From: Corallococcus sp. 4LFB
Lineage (GTDB): Bacteria > Myxococcota > Myxococcia > Myxococcales > Myxococcaceae
Length of the DNA: 26,875 nt
Reading direction: 5' to 3'
Assembly: GCF_046520365.1 (NCBI RefSeq)
Contig: NZ_JBKGHJ010000051.1
Coordinates: 1 to 26,875, forward strand
The stretch's first letter is position 1. Every line of letters begins with the position of its first letter. Both the position numbers and the translations under genes were made by a program. The notes under the pieces were generated by a model. The model was not told the origin of the DNA, did no database searches, and worked only from the letters and a program-made list of their open reading frames with translations. Positions 2,328 through 24,364 of this stretch are shown here, piece after piece.

Positions 2328-3221
2328 CTACTTCGGCTCGCCCATGACCTCCATCGTGTGCTTGAGCCGCTCCAGGCCCAGCCGCACCAGGGCGCCGCGC
2401 AGGTCGGGCTGGCCCAGGAAGGCCTTCTTGAACACGTCGCGCTCCAGCTTGAGGAGCGTGCAGGGCGTCACGGTGCGTACGGTGGCGGTGGCCAGCCGGC
2501 TGCGCAAGAGGGAGATCTCCCCGAACAGGGCGCCTTCCTCCAGCGTGGGGTAGGGGGACTGGCGGCCGTCGCCGTGCGTGTGGAAGACCTCGCACTGGCC
2601 CCGGATGAGGACGTAGAGCGCGTCGCCCGGCTGGCCCCGGGTGAGCAGCGTCTCTCCGGCGGGGACGGTGCAGGGGACGAAGGCGTCACCCAGCTCGTGC
2701 TGCACCTCCGGGGGCAGGGCGGCGATGAGCGGGTTGCTGCGCAGCGCGTCCGCGAGCAGGCGCTCCCGGGCGGTGACCTGCATCTGCTCGCCCTTGACGC
2801 CGTAGTCCTTGCCCAGCTCCCGGACGCCCGCCTGGGTGAGCTCCAGCAGCACGGCGTCCTCCACCGTCACGATGGTGGCGGTGCGCTGCGTGCCGGTGAG
2901 CAGCGCCAGCTCGCCGAAGAACTCGCCGGCGCCCAGGCGGCCGACCTCCGTGTTGGCGCCGTTGTCGCCGCCGCGCAGCACCGCGACGCGGCCCTCCAGC
3001 ACGACGAACATCGAATGGCCCGGGTCGCCCTCGCGCACGACGATCTGTCCCGCGGGCAGGTAGCGCGTGCACACAGGAGGCGGCGTGGCGGCGCCTTCCG
3101 CATCCGTCGGAGCGCCTGCCGCCGTGGGCGCGGCGGAGGTCGCGGGCGTCTGTCCGGCGGAGGCGGCCGGGGCGGACGGGTGGGCGGACAGCAGGGCCTG
3201 CAGGCGCGCGAACAGGGACAT
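2328..3221 (-). CDS. Protein with two tandem cyclic-nucleotide-binding (CAP effector) domains. A TTG alternative start is at 3230.
   Basis: Two repeats of the cNMP-binding signature appear (…GEFFGELALLTG.QRTATIVTVEDAVLLEL… and …GALFGEISLLRSRLATATVRTVTPCTLLKLER…). The N-terminus is Ala/Pro-rich and low-complexity. There is no DNA-binding HTH. Confidence 0.7.
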   Translation of the reverse strand: MSLFARLQALLSAHPSAPAASAGQTPATSAAPTAAGAPTDAEGAATPPPVCTRYLPAGQIVVREGDPGHSMFVVLEGRVAVLRGGDNGANTEVGRLGAGEFFGELALLTGTQRTATIVTVEDAVLLELTQAGVRELGKDYGVKGEQMQVTARERLLADALRSNPLIAALPPEVQHELGDAFVPCTVPAGETLLTRGQPGDALYVLIRGQCEVFHTHGDGRQSPYPTLEEGALFGEISLLRSRLATATVRTVTPCTLLKLERDVFKKAFLGQPDLRGALVRLGLERLKHTMEVMGEPK

Positions 3222-3433
3222 GGTGCCCAAATGCTACCGGGGCGCCCGGCCGGAACTGTGAAGCGCTTCACAGGCGGTGCGGAGGTGGCCTGAAAGACAG
3301 CCAGGCAGGCGCAAGAGCATCATTGAACAGGGATTGGCCGCTGCTGTCACGTCTGGGTTTTGCCCTCCTGACGCACGGCGACGGGCGCCGGGGATGGCGT
3401 GGGCGGACCGGGACGCCCTACAGTCCCCGGCCC

Positions 3434-4429
3434 ATGGGAGACACGCTGGACGTCGTGGTGGACCTGGGAGACGTGGGGGAGACGCCCGCGGATGCCGTGC
3501 TGCTGAAGTACGCGCAGGGCTTCCACGGGGCGGACGGCGCGGTGTCGCGCCGGCTGGAGGCGGCGGGCGTGGCCATGGACGCCTTCGACCTGCTCCCCGG
3601 GGACCACCGCTTCATCGACACGCGCAGGAGCCTGGGGGCTCCGCTGGTGCTCTTCCTGGGCACGGTGCGCCTGCGGCAGTTCGGCTACCACGAGATCCGC
3701 CAGTTCTCCGTGCGCGCGCTCCAGCTCCTGGAGCCCCGGCACGAGGTGCGTCACCTCGCGTGCACGGTGCACGGCCCCAACTACGGGTTGGACGAGGACG
3801 AGGCCGTGCTGGCCCTGGTGGGCGGCTTCGTGGACGCGTTCCAGCGCGGCAGCGGGCCGCGCGACCTCACGCGCATCACGGTGGTGGAGCTGAACCCCAA
3901 GCGCGTGGAGCGGCTGCGCAAGGCCATCGCGCTTGGGCTGGGGCTCACGCCGGGCGTGGAGCCGCTGATGGGGGCCACGGGCTTCCGCGTGCGGCGGACC
4001 TCCCGCTTCGTCCAGGCGCCGCCCATGGCGAGCGCGGGCGCGAACTCGAACGAGAAGCCCCACGCCTTCGTGGCGATGCCCTTCGCCCCGGAGCTGGAGG
4101 ACACCTACCACTACGGCATCCTGAACCCCGTGAAGGCAGCCGGCCTGCTGTGCGAGCGCGTGGACCAGGCCGTCTTCGATGGTCCCATCATCCAGCGCAT
4201 CCGGGACCGCATCGACACGGCGAAGGTCGTCATCGCGGACCTGTCATTGGCGAACCCCAATGTCTATCTGGAGGTGGGCTATGCCTGGGGACGCGGCAAG
4301 CCCACCCTGATGCTGGTGCGCGACGTGAAGGAGCTGCGCTTCGATGTCTCCAGCTACCGGTGCCTCGTCTACCGGAACATCCGGCACCTGGAGGAGCTGC
4401 TGACGCAGGAGCTGCAGCGCATCGCCTGA
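3434..4429 (+). CDS. Two-domain protein. The N-terminal half is Macro-like (ADP-ribose-binding) and the C-terminal half is nucleoside 2-deoxyribosyltransferase/DNPH1(Rcl)-like. An alternative TTG start at 3323 would add 37 aa.
   Basis: The N-terminus reads VVVDLGDVGETPADAVLLKYAQGFHGADGAVSRRLEAAG, which follows the macro-domain pattern GDIT…DAIVNAAN…GGGV.GAI..AAG. Further on, …TVHGPNYGLDEDEAVLALV… resembles the macro distal motif. The C-terminus reads AFVAMPF…AKVVIADLSLANPNVYLEVGYAWGRGKPTLMLV. This closely parallels DNPH1/Rcl (YFCGSIRGG… ADVVVAEVTQPSLGVGYELGRAVAFNKRILCLF). Confidence 0.55.
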   Translation: MGDTLDVVVDLGDVGETPADAVLLKYAQGFHGADGAVSRRLEAAGVAMDAFDLLPGDHRFIDTRRSLGAPLVLFLGTVRLRQFGYHEIRQFSVRALQLLEPRHEVRHLACTVHGPNYGLDEDEAVLALVGGFVDAFQRGSGPRDLTRITVVELNPKRVERLRKAIALGLGLTPGVEPLMGATGFRVRRTSRFVQAPPMASAGANSNEKPHAFVAMPFAPELEDTYHYGILNPVKAAGLLCERVDQAVFDGPIIQRIRDRIDTAKVVIADLSLANPNVYLEVGYAWGRGKPTLMLVRDVKELRFDVSSYRCLVYRNIRHLEELLTQELQRIA

Positions 4430-4438
4430 AGCCTGGGC

Positions 4439-5533
4439 TCACCAGCCGCGCGCGGCGACCTCCCACGTCGCCACGTGCGTGTCGCCGCGCACGACATGCA
4501 GCCGGGGATGCTGCGGGACGGAAACACAGACATGGTTGGGGACCACGCGCACCCGCTCGCCGATGCGGGGGCGCCACGCCGTGCCGGACACGTCCAGCAG
4601 GCCGTGCTCTTCCGACAGGTTCTTCACCACGACCTCCGGCCGGTCCAGCAGGGCGCCATAGCCCGGCGCGAGCCCTTCCTCCTTCACCAGCGTCTTGGAG
4701 CCCGCGTCGATGACCACCTGGCCGGGCACGGCCGTGCTCACCACCGTGGCCAGGACCGAATAGGCACACTCCGTCCAATCACAGGCGCCGATGACGGCCG
4801 CGTTGCGGTCGTTGAGCACGTTGAGGCCGGGACGGATCTCCGTGAGGCCCTTCACGGTATGGGATTGCCAGAGCGTCGGGGTGGAGCCGCCGCTGACCAC
4901 CTCCGGCGGCAGGCCCGCGTGGCTCAAGGCGCCCACGAACGTCGCCAGCGCTTCGGACTGGGCCTGCATCGCGGCGGACAGCTCCGCCTGGGGAACGCGG
5001 ATGTGGCCCGCGTAGAACGTCACCCCGCGAAACGCCACACCGGCCGTGGACGCCGCCGCGCGCGCCAGCGCCACCGTCTCCTCCGGTGTGCGCAGCCCCA
5101 CGCGGCGCATGCCCAGGTCCACCTCCACGAGCACGCCCACGGTGCGCCCCGCGTCCCGGGCCGCTCGCGCCAGCCCCTCCAGCACCTCATGCGAGTCGAG
5201 CGCCACGGTGAGCCGCACGCGCGAGGGCAGGGCCATCAACCGCGCCAGCTTGTGCGCGCCCACCGGCGGGTACGCGAGCAGCACGTCATCGGACACGGCG
5301 GCCATGACCTCGGCTTCCAGGACGGTGGCCACCGTGACGCCGGAGGCTCCCGCCGCGACCTGCATCGCGCCCAGCTCCGCCGTCTTGTGCGTCTTCGTAT
5401 GGGGCCGCCAGCGCAGGCCGTGCTCGCGGGCGTAGGTCGCGACGCGCTGGAGGTTCCGCTCGACGCGGTCCAGGTCCACGATGGCGGCCGGCGTGTCGAG
5501 CGTATCGAGGAAGGTCGAGGACATGCGGCGCAT
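4439..5533 (-). CDS. PLP-dependent enzyme with an alanine racemase N-terminal domain (D-serine dehydratase-like / D-threonine aldolase, DSD1 family).
   Basis: 364 aa. It has the PHTKTHK PLP-lysine motif, a TIM-barrel-like N-terminus and a C-terminal β-domain (…RVVPNHVCVSV…), typical of the DSD1/YGL196W family. Confidence 0.7.
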   Translation of the reverse strand: MRRMSSTFLDTLDTPAAIVDLDRVERNLQRVATYAREHGLRWRPHTKTHKTAELGAMQVAAGASGVTVATVLEAEVMAAVSDDVLLAYPPVGAHKLARLMALPSRVRLTVALDSHEVLEGLARAARDAGRTVGVLVEVDLGMRRVGLRTPEETVALARAAASTAGVAFRGVTFYAGHIRVPQAELSAAMQAQSEALATFVGALSHAGLPPEVVSGGSTPTLWQSHTVKGLTEIRPGLNVLNDRNAAVIGACDWTECAYSVLATVVSTAVPGQVVIDAGSKTLVKEEGLAPGYGALLDRPEVVVKNLSEEHGLLDVSGTAWRPRIGERVRVVPNHVCVSVPQHPRLHVVRGDTHVATWEVAARGW

Positions 5534-6124: not shown

Positions 6125-8308
6125 CTACTTCGGCGCGGGCGCGGAGACCTTCTTCGTCGCGTTGGGCTTGTACGTCATGCCCAGCTCGTTGAAGACGAAG
6201 GAGTAGACGTCCACCTCCTCCTCGATGCGCGCGGACAGCGGCGTGCCCATGCCGTGGCCCGTCTCCGCGTTGGCGCGCAGCAGGATGGGCTTGGGGGACG
6301 CCGTCGCGGACTGCATCCGGGCCACCATCTTGCGCGAGTGGAACGGATCCACGCGCGGGTCATTGGCCCCGGACGTGAAGAGCACCGGCGGGTACTTCGT
6401 CCCGTCCTTCACCTGGTGCACCGGCGAGTAGTTGTACAGCGCCTTGAACTGCTCCGGGTCCTTCACCGAGCCGTACTCCGTCACGTTGAACTGGCCGTTG
6501 GGCGTCAGCTCCGTGCGCAGCATGTCGTAGATGCCCACGCGCGCCACCACCGCGCCGTACTGCTCCGGGTGCTGCGTCAGGGCCGCGCCCATCAGCAGGC
6601 CGCCGTTGCTGCCGCCCTGGATGGCCAGCTTCTTCGGCTTCGTGTACTTCTGGTCCACCAGCAGCTTCGCGCACGCGTAGAAGTCGTCGAACACGTTCTG
6701 CTTCTTCGTGAGCGAGCCGGCCTTGTGCCACTCCTCGCCGAACTCCGAACCGCCGCGCAGGTTCGCCACCGCGAACACGCCGCCCTGCTCCAGCCACATG
6801 CCGGTGACCGGGTTGTAGCCCGGGCTGATGGAGACGTTGAAGCCGCCGTAGCCCGTGAGCAGCGTGGGGTTGTTCCCGTTCAGCTTCGTGCCCTTCTTCT
6901 TCAGGATGGTGAGCGGCACCTTGGTGCCGTCCTTGGACGTGGCCTCCGTGCGCACCACCTCCACGTCGCTCATGTCGACGGGGGCCGTGCGCGCCAGCGC
7001 CGTCTTCGTGAGCTTGTTGTCCGCCGCCGAGTAGCGGAACCACGCGGCCGGCTGGGTGAAGCTGCCGTTGATGACGAGCAGGTCGTCCGCGCCCTGGCGC
7101 ACCAGGCCGCCCACCGACGACACCGGCAGCGTGGGCACCAGCCCCAGCGCCTTGCCCGTCAGGTCCACCATGCGCAGCTGCGACGGACCGCCCAGCTGCT
7201 CCAGCAGGTACAGCCGGCTCTTCGTCGGCACCACGGCCTGCACCGTCGCCTCGCCCTCCGGCACGATGACGGCGGCCTTGTCCAGCGTGGGCGTGGCCAG
7301 GGGCAGCCGAAGCACCTTGCCCTTCGGCGCGTCCTTGCGGCTGATCAGGTACGCCGCGCCGTCGCTGCCAAAGCGCGCGGACACCACCTTGTCCGCGTAC
7401 TTCGCCACCTGCGTCCAGGTGCCCTTGGGACCGTGCAGGAACAGGTCGTACTCGCCGCCGTCGCCGTTGGCCACGCGCGCGAAGGTGTACTGGCCGTCGT
7501 CGCTGGACTCCAGCTCCGTCATCGCGATGCGCGGGAAGTCCTTGCCCAGCGCGTACGAGTCCTTCTCCGTGGGCGTGCCCAGCGCGTGGAAGTACACCTG
7601 CTGGTAGACGTTGCGGTCCTCGGGCGGGCGCTCCTCGCCCCGCGGATGGCGCGTGTAGAAGAAGCCCGTGCCCTGCGCGTTCCACGCGAGGCTGCCGCCC
7701 GCCGTTCCGCTGTTGACGCGCGGCACCCGCTCGTTGGGCATCGCCTTCGCGGAGGCCACGTCCCACACGGACACGTCACCGCTCTCCGTGCCCGCCTTGG
7801 ACATGGAGACGGCGACCTTCTTGCCGTCGTGCGACAGCTGGAACCAGTCGATGGTCGTCTTGCCGGAGGTGTCCACGACCGTGGGGTCCACCAGCACGCG
7901 CTCCTTCGACGTGTCGTCCAGCGAGCCCACCACGATGAGCGTGGGCTGCTGCTTGGGCGGCTGGTACTTCAGCGCCAGCAGCGTGCCGCCCTGTTCGTCC
8001 AGGCCGCCGTAGCCGGGCGACTTCCAGGAGAGGATCTCCGTGATGCGCTGGCGCAGCGGCTCGCGGCCCGGGAGCCTGTCCAGGTACGCGCGCGTGTACG
8101 CGTTCTGCGAGTCCGTCCACTGCCGCACCTTCGGATCCGTCGCGGACTCCATCCACTGGTACGGGTCCGTCACGGTGGTGCCGTGGTAGGCGGTCTCCAC
8201 GGGCTGCTTCTGCGCGGCGGCGGGCTTCTTCGCGGGCGCCTTGCCGGCGGCCCCCACCACCAGCGGCAGCAGCAGCGCGGCGGTGGTCACTGCGATTCTG
8301 GACTTCAT
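6125..8308 (-). CDS. S9A-family prolyl oligopeptidase (prolyl endopeptidase), secreted.
   Basis: 727 aa with a signal peptide (MKSRIAVTTAALLLPLVVGAAG). It has an N-terminal β-propeller and a C-terminal α/β hydrolase domain carrying the GGSNGGLLMGA catalytic-serine motif. A GAGGTGA ribosome-binding site precedes the ATG. Confidence 0.8.
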   Translation of the reverse strand: MKSRIAVTTAALLLPLVVGAAGKAPAKKPAAAQKQPVETAYHGTTVTDPYQWMESATDPKVRQWTDSQNAYTRAYLDRLPGREPLRQRITEILSWKSPGYGGLDEQGGTLLALKYQPPKQQPTLIVVGSLDDTSKERVLVDPTVVDTSGKTTIDWFQLSHDGKKVAVSMSKAGTESGDVSVWDVASAKAMPNERVPRVNSGTAGGSLAWNAQGTGFFYTRHPRGEERPPEDRNVYQQVYFHALGTPTEKDSYALGKDFPRIAMTELESSDDGQYTFARVANGDGGEYDLFLHGPKGTWTQVAKYADKVVSARFGSDGAAYLISRKDAPKGKVLRLPLATPTLDKAAVIVPEGEATVQAVVPTKSRLYLLEQLGGPSQLRMVDLTGKALGLVPTLPVSSVGGLVRQGADDLLVINGSFTQPAAWFRYSAADNKLTKTALARTAPVDMSDVEVVRTEATSKDGTKVPLTILKKKGTKLNGNNPTLLTGYGGFNVSISPGYNPVTGMWLEQGGVFAVANLRGGSEFGEEWHKAGSLTKKQNVFDDFYACAKLLVDQKYTKPKKLAIQGGSNGGLLMGAALTQHPEQYGAVVARVGIYDMLRTELTPNGQFNVTEYGSVKDPEQFKALYNYSPVHQVKDGTKYPPVLFTSGANDPRVDPFHSRKMVARMQSATASPKPILLRANAETGHGMGTPLSARIEEEVDVYSFVFNELGMTYKPNATKKVSAPAPK

Positions 8309-8345
8309 GGTTCACCTCGCATGCGGGTGGTCCCCCGCGGGACGC

Positions 8346-9830
8346 TCATCGCAGGGGCAGCTCCACCAGGGCGGTGGAGAAGGTGTCGAAGGTCTCGTTG
8401 GCGTTGGGCTTCGTGCCCTCGTCCATGTTGCCGAGCATCAGCGCGAAGACGACGCGCGGGTGCTCCGGGTCGTTGGGCCGCTCCGCCACGCCCACGAAGC
8501 ACTTCTGGCCCGTGAGCGTGCCCGTCTTCGCGCGGATGCGGCCCGCGGTGGACTGCGTCGTCTTGCGGCCCGCCAGCGTCCCGTCCACGCCCAGCACCGG
8601 CAGGCTGTCCACCAGCGCGGCGCCGTAGGGCTCCTGGAGGCTGGTGAGCAGCACCCGCGCCATGCCCCGGGGCGTGGCCAGGTTGTAGCGGGACAGGCCG
8701 CTGCCATCCACCGGGCGCAGGTCCTTGGACGGCACGCCCCGGCGCGTCAGCTCCGCGACCAGGGCGGTGCGCAGCGCGGCGTAGCCTTCATTGCCGGTGC
8801 GCTCGCGCGCGAAGCGCATGCCCAGCCGCTCCGCGTACAGGTTGAGGCTCTCCTTGTTCGTCGCGCGCACCAGCTCCGACAGCGGCGGGCTGGTCAGCTC
8901 CACCAGCGGCACCGGCACCGGCGGCATGGGCGGGGTGGGGGCCTCCAGCGACATCGGCAGCCGCGTCACCCCGTGGCGTGCCAGCGCGTCGTCCACGCAC
9001 GCGGCGAAGAGGGCCTCCGGCGCGTCCACGGACAGCTTCACCGCGGCGGCCTGGGGACACGGCCCCCCCGAAGGCGAGCGCCACGTGCACCGCACTCCAC
9101 CGCCCCCGCGCACGCAGGCCAGGTTCGCGCGCTCCGCGTTGACGTCCACGTTCACCACCGCGGACAGCGTGGCGAAGGTGGGGGTCCACTGGACGGAGGG
9201 CGCGTCCGCGCAGGTGGCGCCGGGAGCGCGGGTGAGCGCCAGGTCCACCACGTTCTCGCGGAAGACGAAGGGCGTGGGCGCCGCGCTGTAGGCATACGCC
9301 GCGTCGTCCCAGGCCCAGCCGGGGCCCAGGGCGCCATCCACACCGTCCGTGCCGGCGATGCGCACGTTGCCGCGCCACTGGTGGATGCCGCGCGCCTGGA
9401 AGGCCTCCGCGATGCGTTCACACGCGAGCGCCGTCTCCGGGAAGCGCCACGAGCCCAGCGACGGGTCCCCGGACGCCTGCGCCACCACGTCGCCCAGGAA
9501 CAGGCCTCCCGTCTGCGAGCCCTCCAGGGACACCGGCGTCACGAAGCGGAAGTCCGCCCCCAGCGCGGACAGCACGGCGGAGGTGGACACCACCTTCATC
9601 GTGGACGCGGGCAACAGCCGCACGTTCTCCCGGTGCCTGAAGAGGGGCACCCCGGTGCGAGCGTCCACCACATACGCGCCCGTGATGGCGCCGTCCGCCT
9701 CCAGGGTCTCCAGCAGGGCGTTCGTCACCCCGGGCAGGGTGTTCCGCGGGGCGCCGTCCGGCGTGGCGGGCGCGTGGGTGCAGGCGGACAGGAAGAGGGC
9801 AACGCTGGCGGGCAAGAGGGCGCGGCGCAT
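8346..9830 (-). CDS. dacB: D-alanyl-D-alanine carboxypeptidase/endopeptidase (PBP4, S13 family), a lipoprotein. Longer alternative starts are at 9869 and 9920.
   Basis: It has the SxxK motif (STMKV) and a KTG motif (RAKTGTLTG). The lipoprotein signal is MRRALLPASVALFLSAC. It sits 37 nt upstream of the prolyl oligopeptidase gene on the same strand, so the two are probably an operon. Confidence 0.7.
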   Translation of the reverse strand: MRRALLPASVALFLSACTHAPATPDGAPRNTLPGVTNALLETLEADGAITGAYVVDARTGVPLFRHRENVRLLPASTMKVVSTSAVLSALGADFRFVTPVSLEGSQTGGLFLGDVVAQASGDPSLGSWRFPETALACERIAEAFQARGIHQWRGNVRIAGTDGVDGALGPGWAWDDAAYAYSAAPTPFVFRENVVDLALTRAPGATCADAPSVQWTPTFATLSAVVNVDVNAERANLACVRGGGGVRCTWRSPSGGPCPQAAAVKLSVDAPEALFAACVDDALARHGVTRLPMSLEAPTPPMPPVPVPLVELTSPPLSELVRATNKESLNLYAERLGMRFARERTGNEGYAALRTALVAELTRRGVPSKDLRPVDGSGLSRYNLATPRGMARVLLTSLQEPYGAALVDSLPVLGVDGTLAGRKTTQSTAGRIRAKTGTLTGQKCFVGVAERPNDPEHPRVVFALMLGNMDEGTKPNANETFDTFSTALVELPLR

Positions 9831-11348: not shown

Positions 11349-12110
11349 TCACGGTCCAGGCGCTGTACGTCCGCCAATCACCGGGAAGCGCTCGTAGACC
11401 CGCTTGAGCGCTTCCAGGTGGGCGGGATTGTCGTAATCGAGCGGTGCCTCCGTGAGCCGCACGATCCACCCGCCTGACGGCGTGCGCCGCGCCCGCGTGA
11501 GCAGTTCGGCATCGCGAGCCGGCTCCGGGAACCCGATGACCTCCGCGGCAGCCGCGGACCAGTAATTCAGCCACCCGAGGAAAGAGGGAGTCTCCGCCCT
11601 GGGGCTCTTCTCCGGAAGGTTGAGCATGGGAAGCCCCCGGGGTGAACGCTCGGGGTCGTCTGGCGAGCGGCGGAACTGCTGCGCGACCTCTGCGCCGTAG
11701 CCATACGGCGACGCGTGACCCCAGAACGAACGTGCCCCCTCCGCCACGGCCTCGAGCAGCGCCGCCGCTGCCGCGACCGCGGGCCCATCCAGTGGCAGTT
11801 TTGCGTGCACTTCAAGTTGGGGCTGTCCGCCTGGACTGGAGCGCCCTGAGCTTTCAATTCCCCAGACCGTCACGGGGTGACGTTCGTCCCCGTTGCATAC
11901 GACCGGGAATCCACCGTCCTCGATTCTTTCCACGAGCCAGGTGTCCCGCTGTGGCAACGCGATGGGGCGCCCACTTTCGCCAACTTCCCACTCCAGGCGT
12001 AAGCCAGGGAGCGCATTCTCCATCCCATGGATGATATTGAGCGTGCGGCTGTCTTTGCCCGCGAGGGCAGGGGCATAGGTGATGAGTGTCAGTTTTTTTT
12101 GCGTGCTCAT
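11349..12110 (-). CDS. Putative cognate immunity protein for the upstream lipoprotein nuclease toxin. Its ATG overlaps the toxin stop as ATGA.
   Basis: 253 aa with no signal peptide. Its start codon is 4-nt-coupled (ATGA) to the toxin stop. Its 5' end lies in the same low-GC island as the toxin C-terminal domain. The family is not recognised with certainty (possibly Imm52/DUF5953-like). Confidence 0.5.
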   Translation of the reverse strand: MSTQKKLTLITYAPALAGKDSRTLNIIHGMENALPGLRLEWEVGESGRPIALPQRDTWLVERIEDGGFPVVCNGDERHPVTVWGIESSGRSSPGGQPQLEVHAKLPLDGPAVAAAAALLEAVAEGARSFWGHASPYGYGAEVAQQFRRSPDDPERSPRGLPMLNLPEKSPRAETPSFLGWLNYWSAAAAEVIGFPEPARDAELLTRARRTPSGGWIVRLTEAPLDYDNPAHLEALKRVYERFPVIGGRTAPGP

Positions 12111-13036
12111 CGTTTACATTCTGTGACGACGACATCGAGATTGGGAAGTTCTTCGAGCAGCGCGGTTTTATGCGCCTGGGTGCTCACTCCCACGACGAAG
12201 CCATATCCGCATGCCTCTGCGACGTCTCGCTCCTGCTTCAATTGTTTCACTTCCTTCCTGATCTCCTGTTCCTGGACAAAATCATTGTACGAATCAAATT
12301 GATGCGTCTTGATCTCCCACAGTTTGCGGACACCGATTTGCAGTGCATCGAAGCGCACGCCACCCACGAGCACGTCCATCCCGGGATAACGGTTTGGTGG
12401 GAACTTGTCGGCGCACTCGTTATGCGAGTCATCCTCGCCCGCGTGTGGCACGGGAACAGGCTCGCAACTGGCACGGCCCGTCCGGCCCACAAGGACAGGG
12501 GGCACCGGGGGCTGCCTGCCCTGGCCTGCTGGCTCCGGTTCCAGCCTGGGCTTCGGCTTCGCTACAGTATCCCGGGACGCGACCCTCGCCCCTCGTGAGG
12601 TCCCTGCTTCCTCCGGGTAGAGGTGGCGCAGTTCATACGCATCCAGTTCCTCCTTGATGGCGACGGCGACCACCACCGCTCCCAGCACGATGACGGCTCC
12701 CACGGCGATCTCAGGCGCCGCCAGCACGCAGAACCCGAGCCCCACGGTCGCGGCATCGACGGAGGCGACGGTGCATCTTCCCGTGGTGTCGTGGAACTCG
12801 ACCCGGTCGTGGTCGAGTGCTCGATAGCACCGCTCCACCAGCGCGGGCCAAGGCTGGGACGCTTCGCGGACAACGCACCGTCCATCATCCCTCCAGGGGA
12901 GCGCCGCCGCTCGTCGCAGGTTTGCATTCCTCGTATTGCGGACCGTTGACGCTCTGGGACGCGGCTCCGTCGTGGCGCAGGCCGAGAAAACGAGCAGAAG
13001 CCAAAGCGCGGTGCATGTCCGGAGACTCATGGTCAT
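12107..13036 (-). CDS. Polymorphic-toxin-like lipoprotein with a C-terminal PD-(D/E)xK nuclease domain (SitA-like). An alternative ATG is at 13030; the ORF track extends it to 13150.
   Basis: The type II signal peptide is MTMSLRTCTALWLLLVFSAC|ATTE (lipobox Cys, no Asp at +2). A central hydrophobic segment follows. The C-terminal ~110 aa carry GMDVLVGGVRFDALQIGVRKLWEIKTHQFD, a D…(D/E)xK nuclease signature. This domain is encoded by DNA that is clearly lower in GC than the rest of the window. Confidence 0.55.
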   Translation of the reverse strand: MTMSLRTCTALWLLLVFSACATTEPRPRASTVRNTRNANLRRAAALPWRDDGRCVVREASQPWPALVERCYRALDHDRVEFHDTTGRCTVASVDAATVGLGFCVLAAPEIAVGAVIVLGAVVVAVAIKEELDAYELRHLYPEEAGTSRGARVASRDTVAKPKPRLEPEPAGQGRQPPVPPVLVGRTGRASCEPVPVPHAGEDDSHNECADKFPPNRYPGMDVLVGGVRFDALQIGVRKLWEIKTHQFDSYNDFVQEQEIRKEVKQLKQERDVAEACGYGFVVGVSTQAHKTALLEELPNLDVVVTECKR

Positions 13037-13039
13037 CTC

Positions 13040-13083
13040 TTCACAACAAGCAAAAGCCTCCAGGGCCTTGGACCCGGAGGCTT
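13040..13083 (-). terminator. Rho-independent terminator between the Cys-rich peptide gene and the toxin gene.
   Basis: The minus-strand RNA reads GCCUCCGGGUCCAAGGCCCUGGAGGC, a 9–10 bp GC stem with one bulge. It is followed directly by UUUUGCUUGUUGU, and then by the toxin RBS and ATG. Confidence 0.5.
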
Positions 13084-13094
13084 CTGGATGCGCT

Positions 13095-13316
13095 CTACGG
13101 GTTGATGCAACGCCAGACGCCGCAGGAGCCCTCGCCGTCGCCACAGTCATACTGGCTGTAGCACGGCTTGCAGCTGGCCGAGCAGATCATCCGGACCGCC
13201 TGGGTGTCGCTCGTCTCCGACGCCGGGCCGGGAACCATGGCCAGGGCCGAGCCCGCCATGGCGCCGATGATCAGGGCAAGGTCGGGAACGGACCGCTTCA
13301 GTCGCGACGGCTTCAT
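13095..13316 (-). CDS. Small secreted cysteine-rich peptide. It is a 73-aa precursor with a signal peptide and a six-Cys C-terminal core.
   Basis: MKPSRLKRSVPDLALIIGAMAGSALA|MVPGPASETSDTQAVRMICSASCKPCYSQYDCGDGEGSCGVWRCINP. A GGAGGAAGC ribosome-binding site lies 4 nt before the ATG at 13316. The signal peptide has an AxA cleavage site. Six Cys fall within the last 26 residues. Confidence 0.45.
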   Translation of the reverse strand: MKPSRLKRSVPDLALIIGAMAGSALAMVPGPASETSDTQAVRMICSASCKPCYSQYDCGDGEGSCGVWRCINP

Positions 13317-13553
13317 GCTTCCTCCGGGGGGAATGGGGCCGGAGCATCCGGGCCCACACAGCGAGGGCATTCGACCAGACGCGCAGAGGCGATCCAAGTT
13401 CGACGCTGCTCCAGTCTGGCGCGCTGTCCGAACCGCAATGGAGCAAGCGGCCGCGCCAGTCCGGCGCGGTGCCTGTCTGTCCCAGGGCGGAAGGCAGAGG
13501 CACGGGACTCGCAATGACTCGCGGCCAATCCCTCCCGCCCGAGCAGGTGTCCC

Positions 13554-15832
13554 GTGCCGTCCGCCCCCAGCACCGAAGCCATCCAGCGCATCTCCCTGAA
13601 GAACCGCGAGTACGCCTACATCGAGGACGCCAACCGCGGCGTCGTGCTGATGGAGGTGGGCCCGCGCGTGCTGACGCTGGAGGCGCACCTGACGCTCGTG
13701 GCGAAGGAGCGGATGGTGGAGGTGGGCGCCGGCAGCTGGTGCGTGGTGCGCAACCCCGTGGTGCGCGTGGACGGGCAGGTGGCGCTGGACGACTTCGGCC
13801 AGGCCCGCGTCGCGGTGGGCGACCGCGAGGTCCGCGTGGGCCCGAAGGTGTTCCCGCTGTACCCCGGCGAGGAGCTGGAGGGCGACATCGTCCCGGAGTA
13901 CGTCCTGGGCGTGTCGGAGGCGCTGCGGCTGCGCGCGCTCACCGCCTTCATGGACACCAGCGCCCCGGACGCGCCCGCCGCCGCGAGGCCGGTGACGAGT
14001 GGCTGGTGCGCGGCCCCGGCCGCTACGTGCCAGGCGAGGCCGTCACCGTCGTGTCGCTGGAGAAGGCTCGCGTCCTCAAGGAGACCGAGTACTGCGTCAT
14101 CCTCAATCCCGTGGACCGCGCCACCGGCCGCGTCCAGGAGGGCCGCCGCAAGGTCGTCTCCGGGCCGGACGTCTTCTTCCTGGAGCCCGGCGAAGCGCTG
14201 GAAGGGGACGTGCGCCGCAAGCACGTCCTGTCGGAGCTCCAGGGGCTGAAGCTCCAGGCGCTGGATGACCTCTCCGAGAACGAGGGCGGCGAGCCCCGCG
14301 CGCGCAAGGCCGGTGACACGTGGATCGTCCGCGGCCCGCGCACCTACGTGCCCAGCGAGAAGGTCCTCATCCACCGGGAGATCTCCGCGCTGTCGCTGGG
14401 GCAGGGGGAGGGCCTCTACGTGCGCGATTTGCGCTCGGGCAAGGTGTCGCTCGTCCAGGGGCCGTGCCAGTTCATGCCGGAGGCGCACCAGGAGCTGCAC
14501 GAGAAGCGCCTGTCCCCGGACGCGGAGGCGCTGCTGGGCCTTGCTTCGCCGCTGCCGGCTTCGGCGGACGCGAAGGACGTCCGCGCGCCGCGCCCCGCGA
14601 CCCAGGCGGAGAAGGGGGACCGCACGCGCGCCATCGTGCTGCGCATCGAGGACAACACGGCGGTCCTCATCAACGACTTCGAGACCAACCACGCGCGCGT
14701 GGAGTTCGGCCCCGCGAAGGTGATGCTGCGTCCGTACGAGGACGTCACCGTGTTGGACCTGTCCGGCAGCACGCCCAAGCGCCCGCGCCAGCTCAAGGTG
14801 TTGATGCTGCGGCTGGGGCCGGACTTCGCCACGGACCTCTTCGAGGTGGCCACGCGCGACCACGCGCGGCTGCGCATCAAGCTCTCCTACAAGTGGCAGT
14901 TCGACGTGCAGGGCGACCCGGAGAAGGACAAGGCCATCTTCCGGGTGAACGACTTCATCGGGTACGTGTGTGAGAACCTCGCGTCGCGCATCCGCCAGGT
15001 CGCCGCGGAGAACGAGTTCGAGACCTTCCACAAGAACGCCAGCGTGCTCATCCGCCGCGCCATCTTCGGCATGGACGACGCGGGCCGCGCGCGCAAGGAC
15101 CGCCTCTTCTCCGAGAACCAGCTGCGCATCATCGACATCGACATCAAGGACATCGCCCCCGTCGACGAGAAGACGGCCCTGAAGCTGCGCGAGGCCATCG
15201 ACACCAACATCCAGATCCAACTGGACGCCTCACGCCAGGAGGCCCAGGCCGCCGCGGAGCTCAAGCGCATCCGCAGCGAGGAGGAGAAGCAGCTCGCGGA
15301 CATCGCCAGCCACCGCAAGTCGGAAGCCGAACGCCAATCCCTCATCGAACTGCAGAATCGCAATCACCAGCTGGAGACGCTCAGCCGCGCCAAGGTGGAG
15401 GCGGAGGCGCAGCTGGAGCGGGCCCGCGTGGAGAGCGAGGAGGCCCTGGCCCGCGCCGAGTCCGACGCCCGCGCCTCCCGCATCCGCGCCGAGGCGGAGG
15501 CCGAGCGTGAACGGCTCACCACCCAGGTGACGCTGGAGCGCCAGCAGCGCCTCAACGACCTGGAGGTGGAGCGCCAGTCCCGGCTCGCGGAGGTGGAGGC
15601 CTCGCAGTTCCGCCAGCGCGTGGAGTCCCTGGGCGGCGGGGAGAACTTCGTGAAGGCCGTGGCCGCGCAGGCCCAGGCCGCAGTCGTCGGAGGCCTGGAC
15701 AAGGTCGTCTTCCTGCCCAGCGGCTCCAACCTCAACCTCTTCGACGCCATGCAGGGGCTCCTGGGCCCCGGAGGCCAGCCGCGCCTGTCCGCCCACCACA
15801 CCCCGACACCGCCCGGAGACACCTCCGCCTGA
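13554..15832 (+). CDS. Major vault protein (MVP) homologue of about 760 aa. It is interrupted by a single-base frameshift near 13975–13990: 13554–13986 reads in one frame and 13987–15832 in the frame of the ORF 13469..15832.
   Basis: Direct residue-level similarity to vertebrate MVP runs along the whole length. MVP repeat domains: ISLKNREYAYIEDANRGVVLMEVGP…, then …VFPLYPGEELEGDIVPEYVL… (compare human FPLYPGEVLEKDITPLQVV), then AGDEWLVRGPGRYVP (human AGDEWLFEGPGTYIP). Further matches include EYCVILNPV…FFLEPGEALEG…, …AGDTWIVRGPRTYVPSEKV…, and GEGLYVRDLRSGKVSLVQGP (human EGIYVQDVKTGKVRAV). The shoulder domain reads VLMLRLGPDFATDLFEVATRDHARLRIKLSYKWQFDV (human [36 protein letters not shown]). A long coiled-coil cap helix follows. 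The C-terminal cap-ring motif is GSNLNLFDAMQGLLGPGGQP (human [22 protein letters not shown]). Confidence 0.75.
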
Positions 15833-15924: not shown

Positions 15925-17520
15925 CTACGCGTGCGCCGTCTCGCGCCGCGGGGGCACCTCGCCGCGCAGCTCCGCTACCTCCGCGCGCAGGAGCCAGTCG
16001 GTGGGGAAGTCCGTGGACGCGCGGGCGATCTGCTCCAGCCGCTCGGGGGCCAGCTGCCCCGTCTCGCGGAGGCGGCGCACCTCCGTGTAGAGGGCGGCCA
16101 GCGACGGGTGCAGGGCCTGCGCCTTGCGCTCGCGCGCCTGGGCCTCGCCGTCGCCCGCGGTGAAGGCGTCCAGCTCCCCGAACCACTTGTCCCAGGTGCC
16201 CGGGTCGGCGGGCCCGCCCGCCACGGACGGCAGCCGCTCCGTCAGGTACAGGCGCGCCATGGACGGCAGCGTCAGCTCGCGGTCCGCCAGCTTTCCGCTC
16301 AGGGCAATCACCTCGCCGCCGCCCACCGCGAAGCCCTCCAGCACCAGCCCGCTGTCCAGCGCGAGGCGGAAGCTCCCGCGCTCCGGCAGGGTGCCCTCGC
16401 CAAAGGCGACCAGCGCCGCGCCGGTGAACGGCTTGTCCAGGGCGTGCCCGTCCCGCGACGTGAGGATGGGGCCCTCCAGCCGGGCCAGCGCGGTGGACAG
16501 GCCCGGGGCCACGTCCTTCGGGGCCGGCAGCAGCTCCACCACCTTGCCCGTCACCTCCCGGCCGTCCGCGAGCACCAGGTGGTTGACCGTGCGGGCGCGC
16601 AGCGCCTCGTTGAGGCCCAGGTCCCCGCCGCGCTTCCACGCGAGCGTGGCCTCGAACTCGGCCAGGACCTCGAAGAGGTGTTCAAAGTCGCGCGCCACGA
16701 AGAGCTGCGGCTGCATGCGGGTGATGTCGTAGTCCGTGTCCGCGCACGCCACGCCCAGCGGCAGCTTGTGCACCGCGGACGTCAGGCAGTGCTTCGCCTC
16801 GCCGATGCTGGACAGCAGGCCCGCGCCGTAGATGCGCGGGTGCTTCAGGTCGCCAATCAGCCCGTACTCCGCCGTCCACCAGTACAGGCGGCTCGCGCGG
16901 GTGCTCTCGCTGATGTAGCGGTGGCTGGCGTTGGCGGCCTCCAGGCGGGCCTGGGCGTGGGCAATCTCCTCCTCGGTGGCGGTGGGGTCCTCCTTCACCA
17001 CGGAGAGGTTGCGGATGGCCTCGAAGACGGCCTGGTCCTCCACGCTGGCGATGGCCTTGAACCCCACCAGCCCCACGGCCTTGAGGTACTGCGCGTAGCG
17101 CGCGTTCGCGATGATGGGCGCGTGCCCCGCGCTCTCATGGACGATGTCCGGCGCGGGCGTGTACTGGATGTGCTCGTGCGTGCGGATGTCCGCCGCGATG
17201 GCCAGCACGCCCAGCGCCTGCAGCTCCGTGAAGACGGCCGGCGGGATGAAGCCGCGCACCGCCACGCAGGACCAGCCCAGCTTGGACAGCTTCTCGTTCA
17301 TCTCATCCAGGCTGGGGATGGCCTCCGCGCCAATGCCCGTGGCCTCCAGGCCCTCCAGGTAGACGGGGTGCGCCTTGTCGCTCAGGTGCTCCCGCAGCTG
17401 CCCCAGGATGTGCCGCCACACCGCCTGGTCGCGAGGCGTGTACGCCGCGTAGTCCTGCGACACGACGTAGCGGCGCAGGTGCGCGGGAAGGCGGGCAATG
17501 GTCCGTTCCGTGGGGGTCAT
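15925..17520 (-). CDS. Biopterin-dependent aromatic amino acid hydroxylase (phenylalanine-4-hydroxylase-like) with a long C-terminal extension.
   Basis: 532 aa. The catalytic-domain iron-binding motif is …PDIVHESAGHAPIIAN… (compare EPDICHELLGHVPLF in PAH). A GAAGGAG ribosome-binding site lies 9 nt upstream of the ATG at 17520. Confidence 0.7.
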   Translation of the reverse strand: MTPTERTIARLPAHLRRYVVSQDYAAYTPRDQAVWRHILGQLREHLSDKAHPVYLEGLEATGIGAEAIPSLDEMNEKLSKLGWSCVAVRGFIPPAVFTELQALGVLAIAADIRTHEHIQYTPAPDIVHESAGHAPIIANARYAQYLKAVGLVGFKAIASVEDQAVFEAIRNLSVVKEDPTATEEEIAHAQARLEAANASHRYISESTRASRLYWWTAEYGLIGDLKHPRIYGAGLLSSIGEAKHCLTSAVHKLPLGVACADTDYDITRMQPQLFVARDFEHLFEVLAEFEATLAWKRGGDLGLNEALRARTVNHLVLADGREVTGKVVELLPAPKDVAPGLSTALARLEGPILTSRDGHALDKPFTGAALVAFGEGTLPERGSFRLALDSGLVLEGFAVGGGEVIALSGKLADRELTLPSMARLYLTERLPSVAGGPADPGTWDKWFGELDAFTAGDGEAQARERKAQALHPSLAALYTEVRRLRETGQLAPERLEQIARASTDFPTDWLLRAEVAELRGEVPPRRETAHA

Positions 17521-17612
17521 CGCGGCGGCTCCTTCAAGAGAAACAGGACTCCTGAAGAATACGCATCCCACTGGAAGACGGAAATCCGGCAGAATTCGAC
17601 GTCTTCGTCGGA

Positions 17613-18533
17613 TTATCGTCGCTTGTTCAGGCGACGACGCAGCCCGTCAAGGATGCTCTGGCCCCCGGGGCTGAGGCCGCCGGAGGGCCACAGGGCCACC
17701 ACCTCCACGACCTGGGGCTCCTGTTCGCGCAGGGGCCAGACGTGGAGGTCGGGCGGGAAGGGCTGGGTGGGGCGCACGTCGGGGGCGATGGTGCAGGCCT
17801 TGTAGGCGCGCAGCAGCTCGTAGAGGTGGAGGAAGCTCTCCACGCGGCCGACCTCCGTGACGGAGACGCCGTGGGCGGCGAAGCGCGCGCTGTTGGCGCC
17901 GCCGTAGGGGTCGTCCCGCAGCCAGTCCACGAAGCGCTGGCACCGGAGGTCCTTCACGTCCAGGGAGCGCCGGGAGGGGTGCGCCTTCGCGAGCGCGCAG
18001 TCGGGGCCGGCGATGACCACGAAGGACATGCGCAGCAGGGACTCGGTGTCCACGCCCTCGTGCGGGGGCAGCGGGGTGAAGTCGAGCACCAGGTCCTGCT
18101 GCCGCGTCTGCACCTGCCGCATGAGCTCGTGCGAGCCGCCGAAGCCCACCACCAGCTTGAGGTCGGTGGCGGCGGCGTCCTGCGCGATGCCGCCCAGCAG
18201 GGACATGGAGAGGGTGGGGTTGAGGCCCAGGCGCAGGGTGGGCTCCACGCGGGCCAGGTCCATCAGCCGCTTCACGTCCAGCTGGTGCAGCGGCGTCTGG
18301 GTGCCCGCGTAGAGGCGCTCGCCGCGCGCGGACAGTTGCAGGCGCCGGCCCGGCCCCCGCTCCAGCAGGGCGGCGCCGTCCGCGAGCACCTCCTCCAGGG
18401 CGCGGATGTGCTCGCTCACGACGGAGCGCGCGACGCCCAGGTGCTCCGCGGCGGCGTCGATGCTGCCGGCCTCCACCGCGGCGGTGAAGGACTCGAGCCA
18501 GACCAGGTGTCGCTGGAGCTTGCGCGGGGGCAT
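17613..18533 (-). CDS. LysR-family transcriptional regulator.
   Basis: The N-terminal LysR HTH reads MPPRKLQRHLVWLESFTAAVEAGSIDAAAEHLGVARSVVSEHIRALEEVLADGAALLERG. A C-terminal substrate-binding domain follows. The longer ORF extension (to 18989) overlaps the SDR gene and is rejected. Confidence 0.75.
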   Translation of the reverse strand: MPPRKLQRHLVWLESFTAAVEAGSIDAAAEHLGVARSVVSEHIRALEEVLADGAALLERGPGRRLQLSARGERLYAGTQTPLHQLDVKRLMDLARVEPTLRLGLNPTLSMSLLGGIAQDAAATDLKLVVGFGGSHELMRQVQTRQQDLVLDFTPLPPHEGVDTESLLRMSFVVIAGPDCALAKAHPSRRSLDVKDLRCQRFVDWLRDDPYGGANSARFAAHGVSVTEVGRVESFLHLYELLRAYKACTIAPDVRPTQPFPPDLHVWPLREQEPQVVEVVALWPSGGLSPGGQSILDGLRRRLNKRR

Positions 18534-20083: not shown

Positions 20084-20188
20084 GTATTCCTCGGTTTGTA
20101 GCTGAAACGGGGGGGGCGGGACCGTAGCGGCTCCCCTGGCTGAATGCATCCCGCGTGAGACGTAGGCGCCTGGTCTAGGCTGCGGCCC

Positions 20189-24322: not shown

Positions 24323-24364
24323 GGCGGGTTCGAGAGGGCGCGCGTGGAGAGAAGTCGTCTGGAA

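Follow-up and report, generated by a model that had tools for sequence, protein, structure and literature searches.

A macro-like domain fused to an NDT/DNPH1-like domain in Corallococcus sp. 4LFB: a possible sensor-gated nucleotide N-glycosidase

What is the role of a protein that joins a putative nucleotide-ligand sensor and a putative base-cleaving enzyme in one short chain? The question is raised by a gene of Corallococcus sp. 4LFB, located on contig NZ_JBKGHJ010000051.1 (assembly GCF_046520365.1), positions 1 to 26,875 of which form the stretch analyzed here and are referred to as the window (G+C content about 70%). A first-pass annotation had described the gene as a macro-like domain fused to a nucleoside 2-deoxyribosyltransferase (NDT)/DNPH1-like N-glycosidase domain and had linked the pair to anti-phage defence. 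The coordinates that it gave are exact from start codon to stop codon (Table 1). A longer open reading frame starting at TTG 3323 was dropped, since the orthologues are nearly all 328–336 aa long and begin at the methionine encoded at 3434. The protein, whose orthologue in Myxococcus xanthus is MXAN_3123, consists of a Macro-like domain followed by an NDT/DrHyd-like domain. The reading tentatively favoured here, at somewhat less than an even chance, is that it is a single-polypeptide, macro-domain-gated nucleotide N-glycosidase belonging to the bacterial repertoire of conflict and cell-death effectors.

Two AlphaFold2 models were generated. Model 1 was built on an alignment of 62 myxobacterial sequences (predicted local distance difference test, pLDDT, 87.9; predicted TM-score, pTM, 0.87), and model 2 on an alignment of 52 diverse sequences from across phyla (pLDDT 94.4; pTM 0.92). 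The latter 52 sequences were also used to score residue conservation, and positions described below as invariant or as ≥90% conserved refer to them. Both models agree on a compact protein of two alpha/beta domains with a linker at residues 189–207. The pLDDT of the linker is low in model 1 and 86–94 in model 2, and the pTM of model 2 together with its ordered linker indicates that the macro and NDT domains form a single rigid unit. In the diverse set, pairs of sequences are on average 33% identical over the macro domain and 52% identical over the C-terminal domain, the latter being the best-conserved part of the protein, with the linker the least conserved (Table 1). The two-domain arrangement is beyond chance, as it is kept end to end in hundreds of proteins. 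Both domain assignments made by the first-pass annotation stand, the macro domain by its fold and the NDT/DNPH1-like domain by its fold and its catalytic glutamate.

The C-terminal domain was modeled as a flavodoxin-like NDT fold, and the model matches the MilB CMP hydrolase (score 14.5), 2′-deoxyribosyltransferases (13.7, 13.1 and 12.7), Rcl (12.8), and TIR domains (10–13). PF05014 (Nuc_deoxyrib_tr) was the sole Pfam family reported for the protein (E=3.3e-5, residues 252–301), with a score of 24.4 bits that is below the gathering threshold of 28.8; the same weak match was found in 62/62 myxobacterial homologues (best E=3.7e-6). An NCBIfam scan of the protein returned nothing meaningful, and a phmmer search of the PDB gave weak matches to MilB. 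A profile of the C-terminal domain alone reached MilB at E=0.0036, with BcmB, BlsM and Rcl matching more weakly, and recovered no TIR chain at E<10. The domain does not match the TIR profiles PF13676, PF01582 or PF10137, and PADLOC matched residues 245–321 to its model PDLC00733, “Effector, TIR” (E=1.8e-13). Judged by sequence, the domain appears to be a divergent member of the NDT/DNPH1 superfamily and not a member of the PF05014 family.

The residues of its presumed active site are strongly conserved. N276, V277, L279, E280, G282 and A284 are invariant, and E280, in an E-x-G motif after strand 4, aligns with the glutamate of MilB, a position at which the otherwise identical chain 4ohb reads Ala. 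Loss of this catalytic glutamate had been named by the first-pass annotation as fatal to its proposal; the residue is present and invariant. The beta-1 motif resembles the “VFLAAPF” of the CMP N-glycosidase 4jen (a weak profile match). By manual mapping, the position of the tyrosine in NDT (Y7) and Rcl (Y13) is taken by the nearly invariant F212, and the motif reads AMPF, not GSIRGG. The phosphate-binding motif specific to DNPH1 (a Ser and GSIRGG) is likewise not evident by manual mapping, and deoxynucleoside monophosphate (dNMP) is not a favoured substrate. The loop at residues 241–250 is among the best-conserved stretches, yet it is the sole lower-confidence region of the best model (pLDDT 74). 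Its topological position in the model matches that of the BB loop of TIR domains, and it may be a mobile gating element.

The N-terminal domain was modeled as a three-layer alpha/beta/alpha macro fold with the macro strand order, and Foldseek matched this model to macro domains at probability 1.0 (TMt 0.63–0.72). Even when a permissive E-value cut-off was used, Pfam matched PF01661 (Macro) neither to the target protein nor to any of the 62 homologues from myxobacteria. None was listed in Pfam scans of 33 relatives, and no Pfam Macro match occurred among the 114 family members scanned. The only macro-related Pfam matches were to Peptidase_M17_N, and all were sub-threshold. Pfam, NCBIfam, PDB phmmer and hmmsearch gave no significant sequence-level support for a macro domain. 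A comparison by hhalign with Af1521, the sequence of which was checked against 1hjz, gave a weak match with a probability of 6.6% in which just the first 21 residues were aligned, and a pairwise alignment to Af1521 had z = 2 and was misaligned. Because every sequence method missed significance, the macro assignment rests on fold.

Canonical macro domains carry NAAN...GGG in loop 1, and loop 2 of Af1521 is the phosphate-binding “SAGIYG”. The corresponding loops of the target protein were placed on Af1521 by hand, in a gapless mapping that followed the order of the secondary-structure elements and is inferred, not the output of an alignment tool. In this mapping, PADAVLLKYAQGFHGADGAV corresponds to Af1521 residues 25–44 and HLACTVHGPNYGLDEDE to residues 134–150. 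For loop 1 (Af1521 residues 31–41), the catalytic Asn34 of MacroD is replaced by Ala27 and the GGG loop by G32-x-D34. For loop 2 (Af1521 residues 138–150), the phosphate-binding loop retains its length and its glycines, and T111, H113, G114, G118, L119, D120, E121 and E123 are ≥90% conserved across phyla. Asp20 of Af1521, with which Asp13 is aligned (Table 1), contacts adenine. The best-conserved positions of the N-terminal domain are G12-D13, D20, K25-Q28, G32, G76, T111, H113, G114, G118-E121 and E123, and irrespective of the manual mapping they cluster where macro domains contact their ligands. The (O-acyl-)ADP-ribose ligand of the first-pass annotation amounts to a guess, as the catalytic Asn and GGG loop of MacroD are absent by the same mapping.

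These replacements bear on whether the protein is an enzyme at all. Both domains could be devoid of catalysis and act as nucleotide-binding or oligomerization modules of an adaptor or scaffold, as is the case for many TIR and macroH2A-type domains. The apparent absence of the canonical MacroD catalytic residues and the Phe in place of the tyrosine that tunes the glutamate in NDT and Rcl (both by manual mapping) would suit such a role, as would the sub-threshold Pfam NDT score. Across phyla, however, Glu280 and all of the motif NPNVYLEVGYAWG vary little or not at all, and the C-terminal domain is conserved beyond the macro domain in the way that marks an active site under selection. An adaptor is considered highly improbable.

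The putative catalytic domain appears, from its sequence, to be the same as one used in an established immune system, where it stands behind a different nucleotide sensor. This link, which emerged from the search of plasmids, is the best single pointer to function. A type III operon of the cyclic oligonucleotide-based antiphage signalling system (CBASS) on the Klebsiella plasmid NZ_CP099749.1 encodes a CD-NTase, a HORMA protein, a TRIP13-like AAA ATPase, a 388-aa effector and an exonuclease. The effector (WP_004181948.1) consists of PF18178 Cap17-like_N (TPALS) and then a domain homologous to the target protein's C-terminal domain. Alignment of the two C-terminal domains by hhalign gave a probability of 98.6% (E=5.9e-16, 34% identity over 99 columns), and both contain the motif ADLTG-x-PN-x-(Y/F)LE(V/L)GYA. 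PDLC00733 was matched by 52/52 diverse family members, and the TPALS-type CBASS effector is evidently the type of protein behind this PADLOC model.

The family itself is concentrated in myxobacteria. A homologue search with the target protein gave 1816 matches, the best 120 of which are nearly all full-length, with a few truncated. Those of the best 120 that are named by source come from Myxococcota, including MXAN_3123 and proteins of Pyxidicoccus, Archangium, Hyalangium, Vitiosangium and Kofleriaceae. Full-length homologues share 56–95% identity with the target protein, which is 98% identical in Corallococcus exercitus and C. carmarthensis. A HMMER scan of 1.84 billion cluster representatives (50% clustering) found 392 proteins at E<=1e-30, and nearly all of the best 150 of these span both domains (query residues ~5–330). 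A set of 185,579 species genomes, one for each species, contained 418 loci. Myxococcaceae and Archangiaceae carry the gene widely, and it is sporadic in about nine other phyla, where carriers include Acidobacteriota, Binatia, Longimicrobium, Caldilineaceae, Ktedonobacteraceae, Chloroflexia, Bacteroidota, Armatimonas, Nostocales and a metagenome-assembled genome (MAG) of Methanosarcina. At the level of phyla, the patchy distribution outside Myxococcota includes Chloroflexota, Armatimonadota and Gemmatimonadota.

Four records, all with full-length homologues at 50–70% identity, carry unexpected taxonomic labels, namely “Comamonas sp. KCTC 72670” (L027, BNCN01000010.1) and three “uncultured Enterobacterales” MAGs (L052, L053 and L060). 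The G+C content of the latter three is 69–72%. All four look myxobacterial, and their labels are probably wrong or their assemblies contaminated.

Additional domains occur in front of the two-domain module in 37 of the best 150 cluster representatives (about a quarter). At least 22 of these 37 carry a TIR domain, 19 recognized by a local hidden Markov model and three more by Pfam. CHAT or caspase fusions were found in P0230, P0198 and the Methanosarcina locus L078, and other N-terminal fusions involve DUF4062 (P0175), HTH_3 (P0212), EAD1 (P0154 and P0177) and EAD7 (P0200 and P0268). A CHAT-fused member adjoins an nSTAND1-WD40 gene. C-terminal additions in relatives include HD, an astacin-like peptidase and a second NDT domain. 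DUF4062 has been described as a TIR-like NADase (bioRxiv 10.64898/2026.05.01.722283), and EAD1 and EAD7 are adaptors of NTP-dependent conflict systems, which are enriched in multicellular bacteria, and “primarily recruit other effectors” to these systems (PMC7159879). The sensor-plus-effector logic of the first-pass annotation, in which a ligand sensor is paired with a nucleotide-cleaving effector, draws support from the fusions to TIR, CHAT/caspase, DUF4062, EAD1 and EAD7, and from the homology to the CBASS effector domain.

The caspase-containing member at L078 lies in the archaeal MAG of Methanosarcina sp. UBA402 and is a 626-aa caspase (Peptidase_C14)-Macro-NDT fusion (positions 7146–9026 of its locus). 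A NudC-type NADH pyrophosphatase gene (4653–5528) is found ~1.6 kb upstream of it, a link to NAD that may or may not be meaningful.

The fusions are also the point at which a different division of labour has to be weighed, in which the module would be a generator of signals or a means of their turnover. The NDT domain would then make a messenger derived from ADP-ribose (ADPR) by base exchange on NAD+, like TIR/ThsB and ADP-ribosyl cyclases, or destroy one. The macro domain would capture the product or substrate, and the actual outputs would be the TIR, protease or HTH domains fused in relatives. In its solo form, the protein would adjust or end ADPR-type signalling, as a ring nuclease does for cyclic oligoadenylates. 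NDT enzymes use a covalent ribosyl-Glu intermediate and naturally transglycosylate. Effector domains fused in front are the pattern of sensor domains such as SAVED and CARF, and TIR, CHAT, HD and HTH domains are fused in front of the present module in this manner. In type II Thoeris, ThsB proteins whose active site is NDT-like partner with the macro-domain protein ThsA, and TIR domains make ADPR and IAD by base exchange (PMC11204291). Against such a role, EAD1 and EAD7 belong to classes that recruit effectors rather than signalling components (PMC7159879), the equivalent domain of the CBASS homologue sits in the effector position, and no separate effector gene is conserved beside the solo form. 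A signalling module is judged quite unlikely.

In the favoured reading, that of a gated N-glycosidase, Glu280 of the NDT/DrHyd-type domain would break the bond between base and ribose. From the observations above we infer a ligand, a substrate, a direction of regulation and a biological role in Corallococcus, as follows. The substrate would most likely be NAD+, because of the connection between macro domains and ADPR and because conflict-type DrHyd domains are predicted to act as NADases (PMC9503650). ATP/dATP or a nucleoside monophosphate (NMP) would be the alternative, by analogy with MilB, Rcl and the PNP domain of Cap17. The conserved cleft of the macro domain would take up a ligand of the adenine-nucleotide or ADP-ribose type. 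The enzyme would be controlled through the rigid interface between the domains, with the macro domain acting either as an allosteric sensor or as the holder of the substrate's ADP part. The module in its minimal form, without fusions, would have become a fixed chromosomal gene in Myxococcaceae. The patchy distribution outside Myxococcota and the precedent of type II Thoeris, in which macro domains sense ADPR derivatives (PMC11204291), also speak for this reading.

Several observations weigh against this reading, and most of them concern the genomic setting. There are no defence genes around the target gene in the window, and its neighbours are ordinary, both here and in other Myxococcaceae. 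Identity between Corallococcus and M. xanthus is 70% for the target protein and 69–80% for its neighbours. Clustering of open reading frames around 22 loci from outside Myxococcaceae revealed no conserved partner gene, and the neighbours at these loci are mixed and mostly housekeeping (PMT_2, PCMT, TrpD, DUF885, molybdopterin oxidoreductase, Gp49-like toxin). Phages, viral contigs and plasmids (IMG/VR, INPHARED, PLSDB, BFVD) yielded no full-length two-domain member, only single-domain relatives. Finally, manual mapping puts other residues in place of the MacroD Asn, the GGG loop and the distal-ribose Tyr. The link to defence made by the first-pass annotation is not supported by the genomic setting, as the gene is outside a defence island and without a partner gene, is syntenic in Myxococcaceae with housekeeping-like divergence, and is absent in its two-domain form from the plasmids, phages and viral contigs searched.

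Among the neighbours at those 22 loci, DUF885 abuts the target gene in an Acidobacteriota MAG (L066, 9236–11245) and an Armatimonas MAG (L075, 6184–7824), and a PMT_2 glycosyltransferase lies directly upstream of it in two Chloroflexota loci (L073, 6169–7980; L077, 1584–2903). Both were dropped as candidate partners, since with two loci each they recur too rarely.

Downstream of the target gene in the window are a convergent D-serine-dehydratase-like gene and then genes for a hypothetical protein, an S9 prolyl oligopeptidase, an S13 DD-carboxypeptidase and an RdgC-like protein; Lnb_N and YdeI/OmdA genes lie farther upstream. The block from Lnb_N through the target gene and the D-Ser dehydratase to S9 is syntenic in Myxococcus, Pyxidicoccus and Citreicoccus, whereas the Lnb_N-target-S9 block is not syntenic in Archangium, Hyalangium or Kofleriaceae. 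A protein with two cyclic nucleoside monophosphate (cNMP)-binding domains is encoded next to the target gene (Table 1), an adjacency kept in Corallococcus species only and not in Myxococcus, Pyxidicoccus or Citreicoccus. Because of this synteny and the similar identities of target and neighbours, the target gene behaves as one that is inherited vertically and subject to ordinary purifying selection, in which it differs from typical accessory defence genes. Searches for RNA elements and for promoter or terminator signals gave nothing informative.

Such a setting would suit a housekeeping enzyme of nucleotide or ADP-ribose salvage, active in core myxobacterial metabolism and not in immunity. The NDT domain would hydrolyze a metabolite of the nucleoside-5′-phosphate type (a damaged or modified NMP, nicotinamide mononucleotide or ADPR), like MilB, BcmB or Rcl/DNPH1, and the macro domain would bind the substrate or catalyze a second step on a metabolite derived from ADPR. 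Salvage is consistent with the synteny and the housekeeping rate of evolution in Myxococcaceae, with the absence of nearby defence genes and the ordinary metabolic neighbours in other phyla, and with the closest solved sequence relatives of the C-terminal domain, which are metabolic or biosynthetic N-glycosidases of CMP and dNMP and not TIRs. The acidic D120-E121-x-E123 cluster by macro loop 2, which is strongly conserved, could also be catalytic. On the other hand, repeated fusion to TIR, caspase/CHAT, DUF4062, EAD1 and EAD7, and a catalytic domain in common with a CBASS effector, are unexpected for a purely metabolic enzyme. The family is also very sparse outside Myxococcota (the 418 loci being the total in all species genomes searched), and neither the phosphate-binding motif of DNPH1/Rcl nor the NDT Tyr is evident by manual mapping. 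Salvage is a serious rival that we nonetheless hold to be somewhat unlikely.

A more specific form of the gated N-glycosidase can be envisaged for fruiting myxobacteria, in which a conflict effector would have been domesticated as a core gene. An endogenous ADP-ribose-derived signal would trigger collapse of the NAD+ or adenine-nucleotide pool, either as a one-protein, Thoeris-like form of immunity or as developmental programmed cell death, and the K25/H113/D120-E121-x-E123 pocket would recognize a messenger other than plain ADPR. This extended proposal is speculative and, taken as a whole, unlikely.

The remainder of the window contains other genes of note (Table 1). The adjacent DUF5953 and DUF6310 genes have the look of a cassette of two genes acquired by horizontal transfer, which could be a toxin/immunity-type pair. 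The genes for the Biopterin_H-like protein, the M1 aminopeptidase and the RPE65-type oxygenase are ordinary but eukaryote-like, as is typical of myxobacteria. The window also encodes a homologue of the major vault protein (MVP) of eukaryotes. TEP1 and vaults bind ADPR. Vaults have been linked to ADP-ribose and to a TIR-like NADase as well (bioRxiv 10.64898/2026.05.01.722283). A functional link between the target protein and the MVP homologue was considered and dropped, as no evidence for it was found and the flank examined at the M. xanthus locus has different genes.

Table 1. Coordinates of the target gene, its parts and other features of the window.
Feature	Position	Strand	Residues	Remarks
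Complete target gene	3434..4429	+	1-331	ATG 3434, stop 4427-4429; 331-aa product (open reading frame list, translation)
Macro-fold domain	3434..3997	+	1-188	
Asp13, “GD(V/I)” motif	3470..3472	+	13	Candidate adenine-contacting Asp; ≥90% conserved; aligned with Af1521 Asp20 in the short hhalign segment
Loop 1 position, “LKYAQGFHGAD”	3503..3535	+	24-34	K25, A27, G32 ≥90% conserved
Loop 2 position, TVHGPNYGLDEDE	3764..3802	+	111-123	Followed by the family-specific acidic D-E-x-E cluster
Inter-domain linker	3998..4054	+	189-207	Mean pairwise identity 10% in the diverse set
NDT/DNPH1 (DrHyd)-superfamily domain	4055..4426	+	208-331	
Beta-1 motif “HAFVAMPF”	4061..4084	+	210-217	F212, A214, M215, P216, F217 ≥90% conserved
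Loop “ERVDQAVFDG”	4154..4183	+	241-250	After C-domain strand 2; E241, R242, D244, F248, G250 ≥90% conserved
Putative catalytic motif NPNVYLEVGYAWG	4253..4291	+	274-286	Glu280 codon 4271-4273
Two-cNMP-binding-domain protein	2328-3230	-		Upstream of and divergent from the target gene, ~200 bp away
DUF5953 and DUF6310, adjacent genes	11349-13150	-		E=3e-113 and E=2e-58; sole low-GC patch of the window, about 0.62 vs about 0.70
MVP homologue	13271-15832	+		853 aa; MVP_shoulder E=4e-45 and Vault repeats; ~9 kb from the target gene
573-aa protein	15925-17646	-		Two Biopterin_H-like stretches
M1 aminopeptidase	20159-22873	+		ERAP1-like C-domain
RPE65-type carotenoid oxygenase	23129-24364	-		

Pairing of a sensor with an N-glycosidase effector, as in ThsA, TIR-SAVED, TIR-STING and Cap17, is a theme central to the innate immunity of bacteria and eukaryotes. 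The Macro-NDT family would add to it a new sensor-effector pairing, macro plus NDT/DrHyd, and with it a class of NDT/DNPH1-like enzymes whose immune role has so far only been predicted. As a syntenic core gene of social bacteria that lyse during development, it bears on the re-use of immune effectors for multicellular cell death. Should the protein prove to be metabolic, it would stand for a new activity in the salvage of ADPR or nucleotides. The system is tractable, being a single gene for 331 residues with a high-confidence model and an orthologue, MXAN_3123, in the genetically tractable M. xanthus.

How the protein relates to known systems can be considered domain by domain and then as a whole. 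Like Af1521, MacroD1/2, the PARP9/14 macro domains and macroH2A1.1, its N-terminal domain has, in the model, a three-layer alpha/beta/alpha fold with the same strand order. The Asp of the “GD(I/V)” motif of canonical macro domains appears to be kept in the target family, and the putative Gly-containing counterpart of loop 2 has the same length (manual mapping). In contrast, the NAAN/GGG loop 1 of canonical macro domains is replaced by LKYAQ...G-x-D, and the family has conserved residues of its own (K25, H113, D120, E121 and E123). The C-terminal domain is comparable to the CMP N-glycosidases MilB, BcmB and BlsM and to Rcl/DNPH1 (PF05014; “DrHyd” in Aravind-lab nomenclature). Those are single-domain enzymes without a macro domain, however, and sequence identity is 17–20%, with Phe for the Tyr of NDT and Rcl and no recognizable DNPH1 phosphate motif (manual mapping).

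Among immune systems, the TPALS effector of type III CBASS follows the same logic, an N-terminal nucleotide-binding domain followed by an effector domain in 330–390 aa. It differs in that its sensor is of the SLOG-type TPALS kind and not a macro domain, and in that it is encoded in a plasmid operon with CD-NTase, HORMA and AAA genes, whereas the target gene has no cyclase or partner gene. No CBASS gene (cyclase, HORMA or Cap) was found among the open reading frames of the window or at the 22 diverse loci.

Type II Thoeris offers a second comparison. Its macro domain, also one that was found by fold only, senses ADPR, IAD or His-ADPR from the TIR protein, and the active site in one subfamily of ThsB is NDT/DNPH-like (PMC11204291). 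Thoeris of this type consists of two proteins, a ThsB TIR and a ThsA with transmembrane (TM) and macro domains, uses its TM helices as the effector and is encoded in a mobile operon, whereas the target protein has both of its domains fused. With regard to Thoeris types I, II and IV, in which a ThsB TIR gene adjoins a gene for a ThsA effector (SIR2-SLOG, TM-macro or caspase), there is no adjacent TIR gene in the window, no TM segment in the target protein and no PADLOC Thoeris match. Relatives with a TIR or caspase domain in cis resemble a one-protein analogue of Thoeris but are not Thoeris operons.

The third comparison is with EAD-coupled effectors, for which Kaur, Burroughs, Iyer and Aravind 2020 (PMC7159879) list both DRHyd and Macro among the effector-side domains, with no Macro-DRHyd fusion described in the accessible text. 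Relatives of the target carry EAD1 or EAD7 before the same Macro-NDT module, and the phyletic bias toward Myxococcota, filamentous cyanobacteria and Chloroflexota is shared with the EAD-coupled systems. In contrast, the target protein has no EAD and begins directly with the macro domain, the EADs being confined to P0154, P0177, P0200 and P0268. No vWA-MoxR, STAND or GTPase core component was found in the window.

As a cyclase, a ThsB, a TM segment and an EAD are all absent, the target is not a CBASS, Thoeris or EAD-coupled protein by the features that define these systems. It would work like a sensor-effector immune N-glycosidase and stands outside every named system. No paper on a Macro-NDT/DrHyd or TIR-Macro architecture, or on MXAN_3123, was found in the searchable literature, which agrees with the earlier remark of the first-pass annotation that this is not a characterized system. 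Its building blocks and its design principle are already known, whereas the combination of the two domains, the family as such and the fixation of the gene in the myxobacterial core are not.

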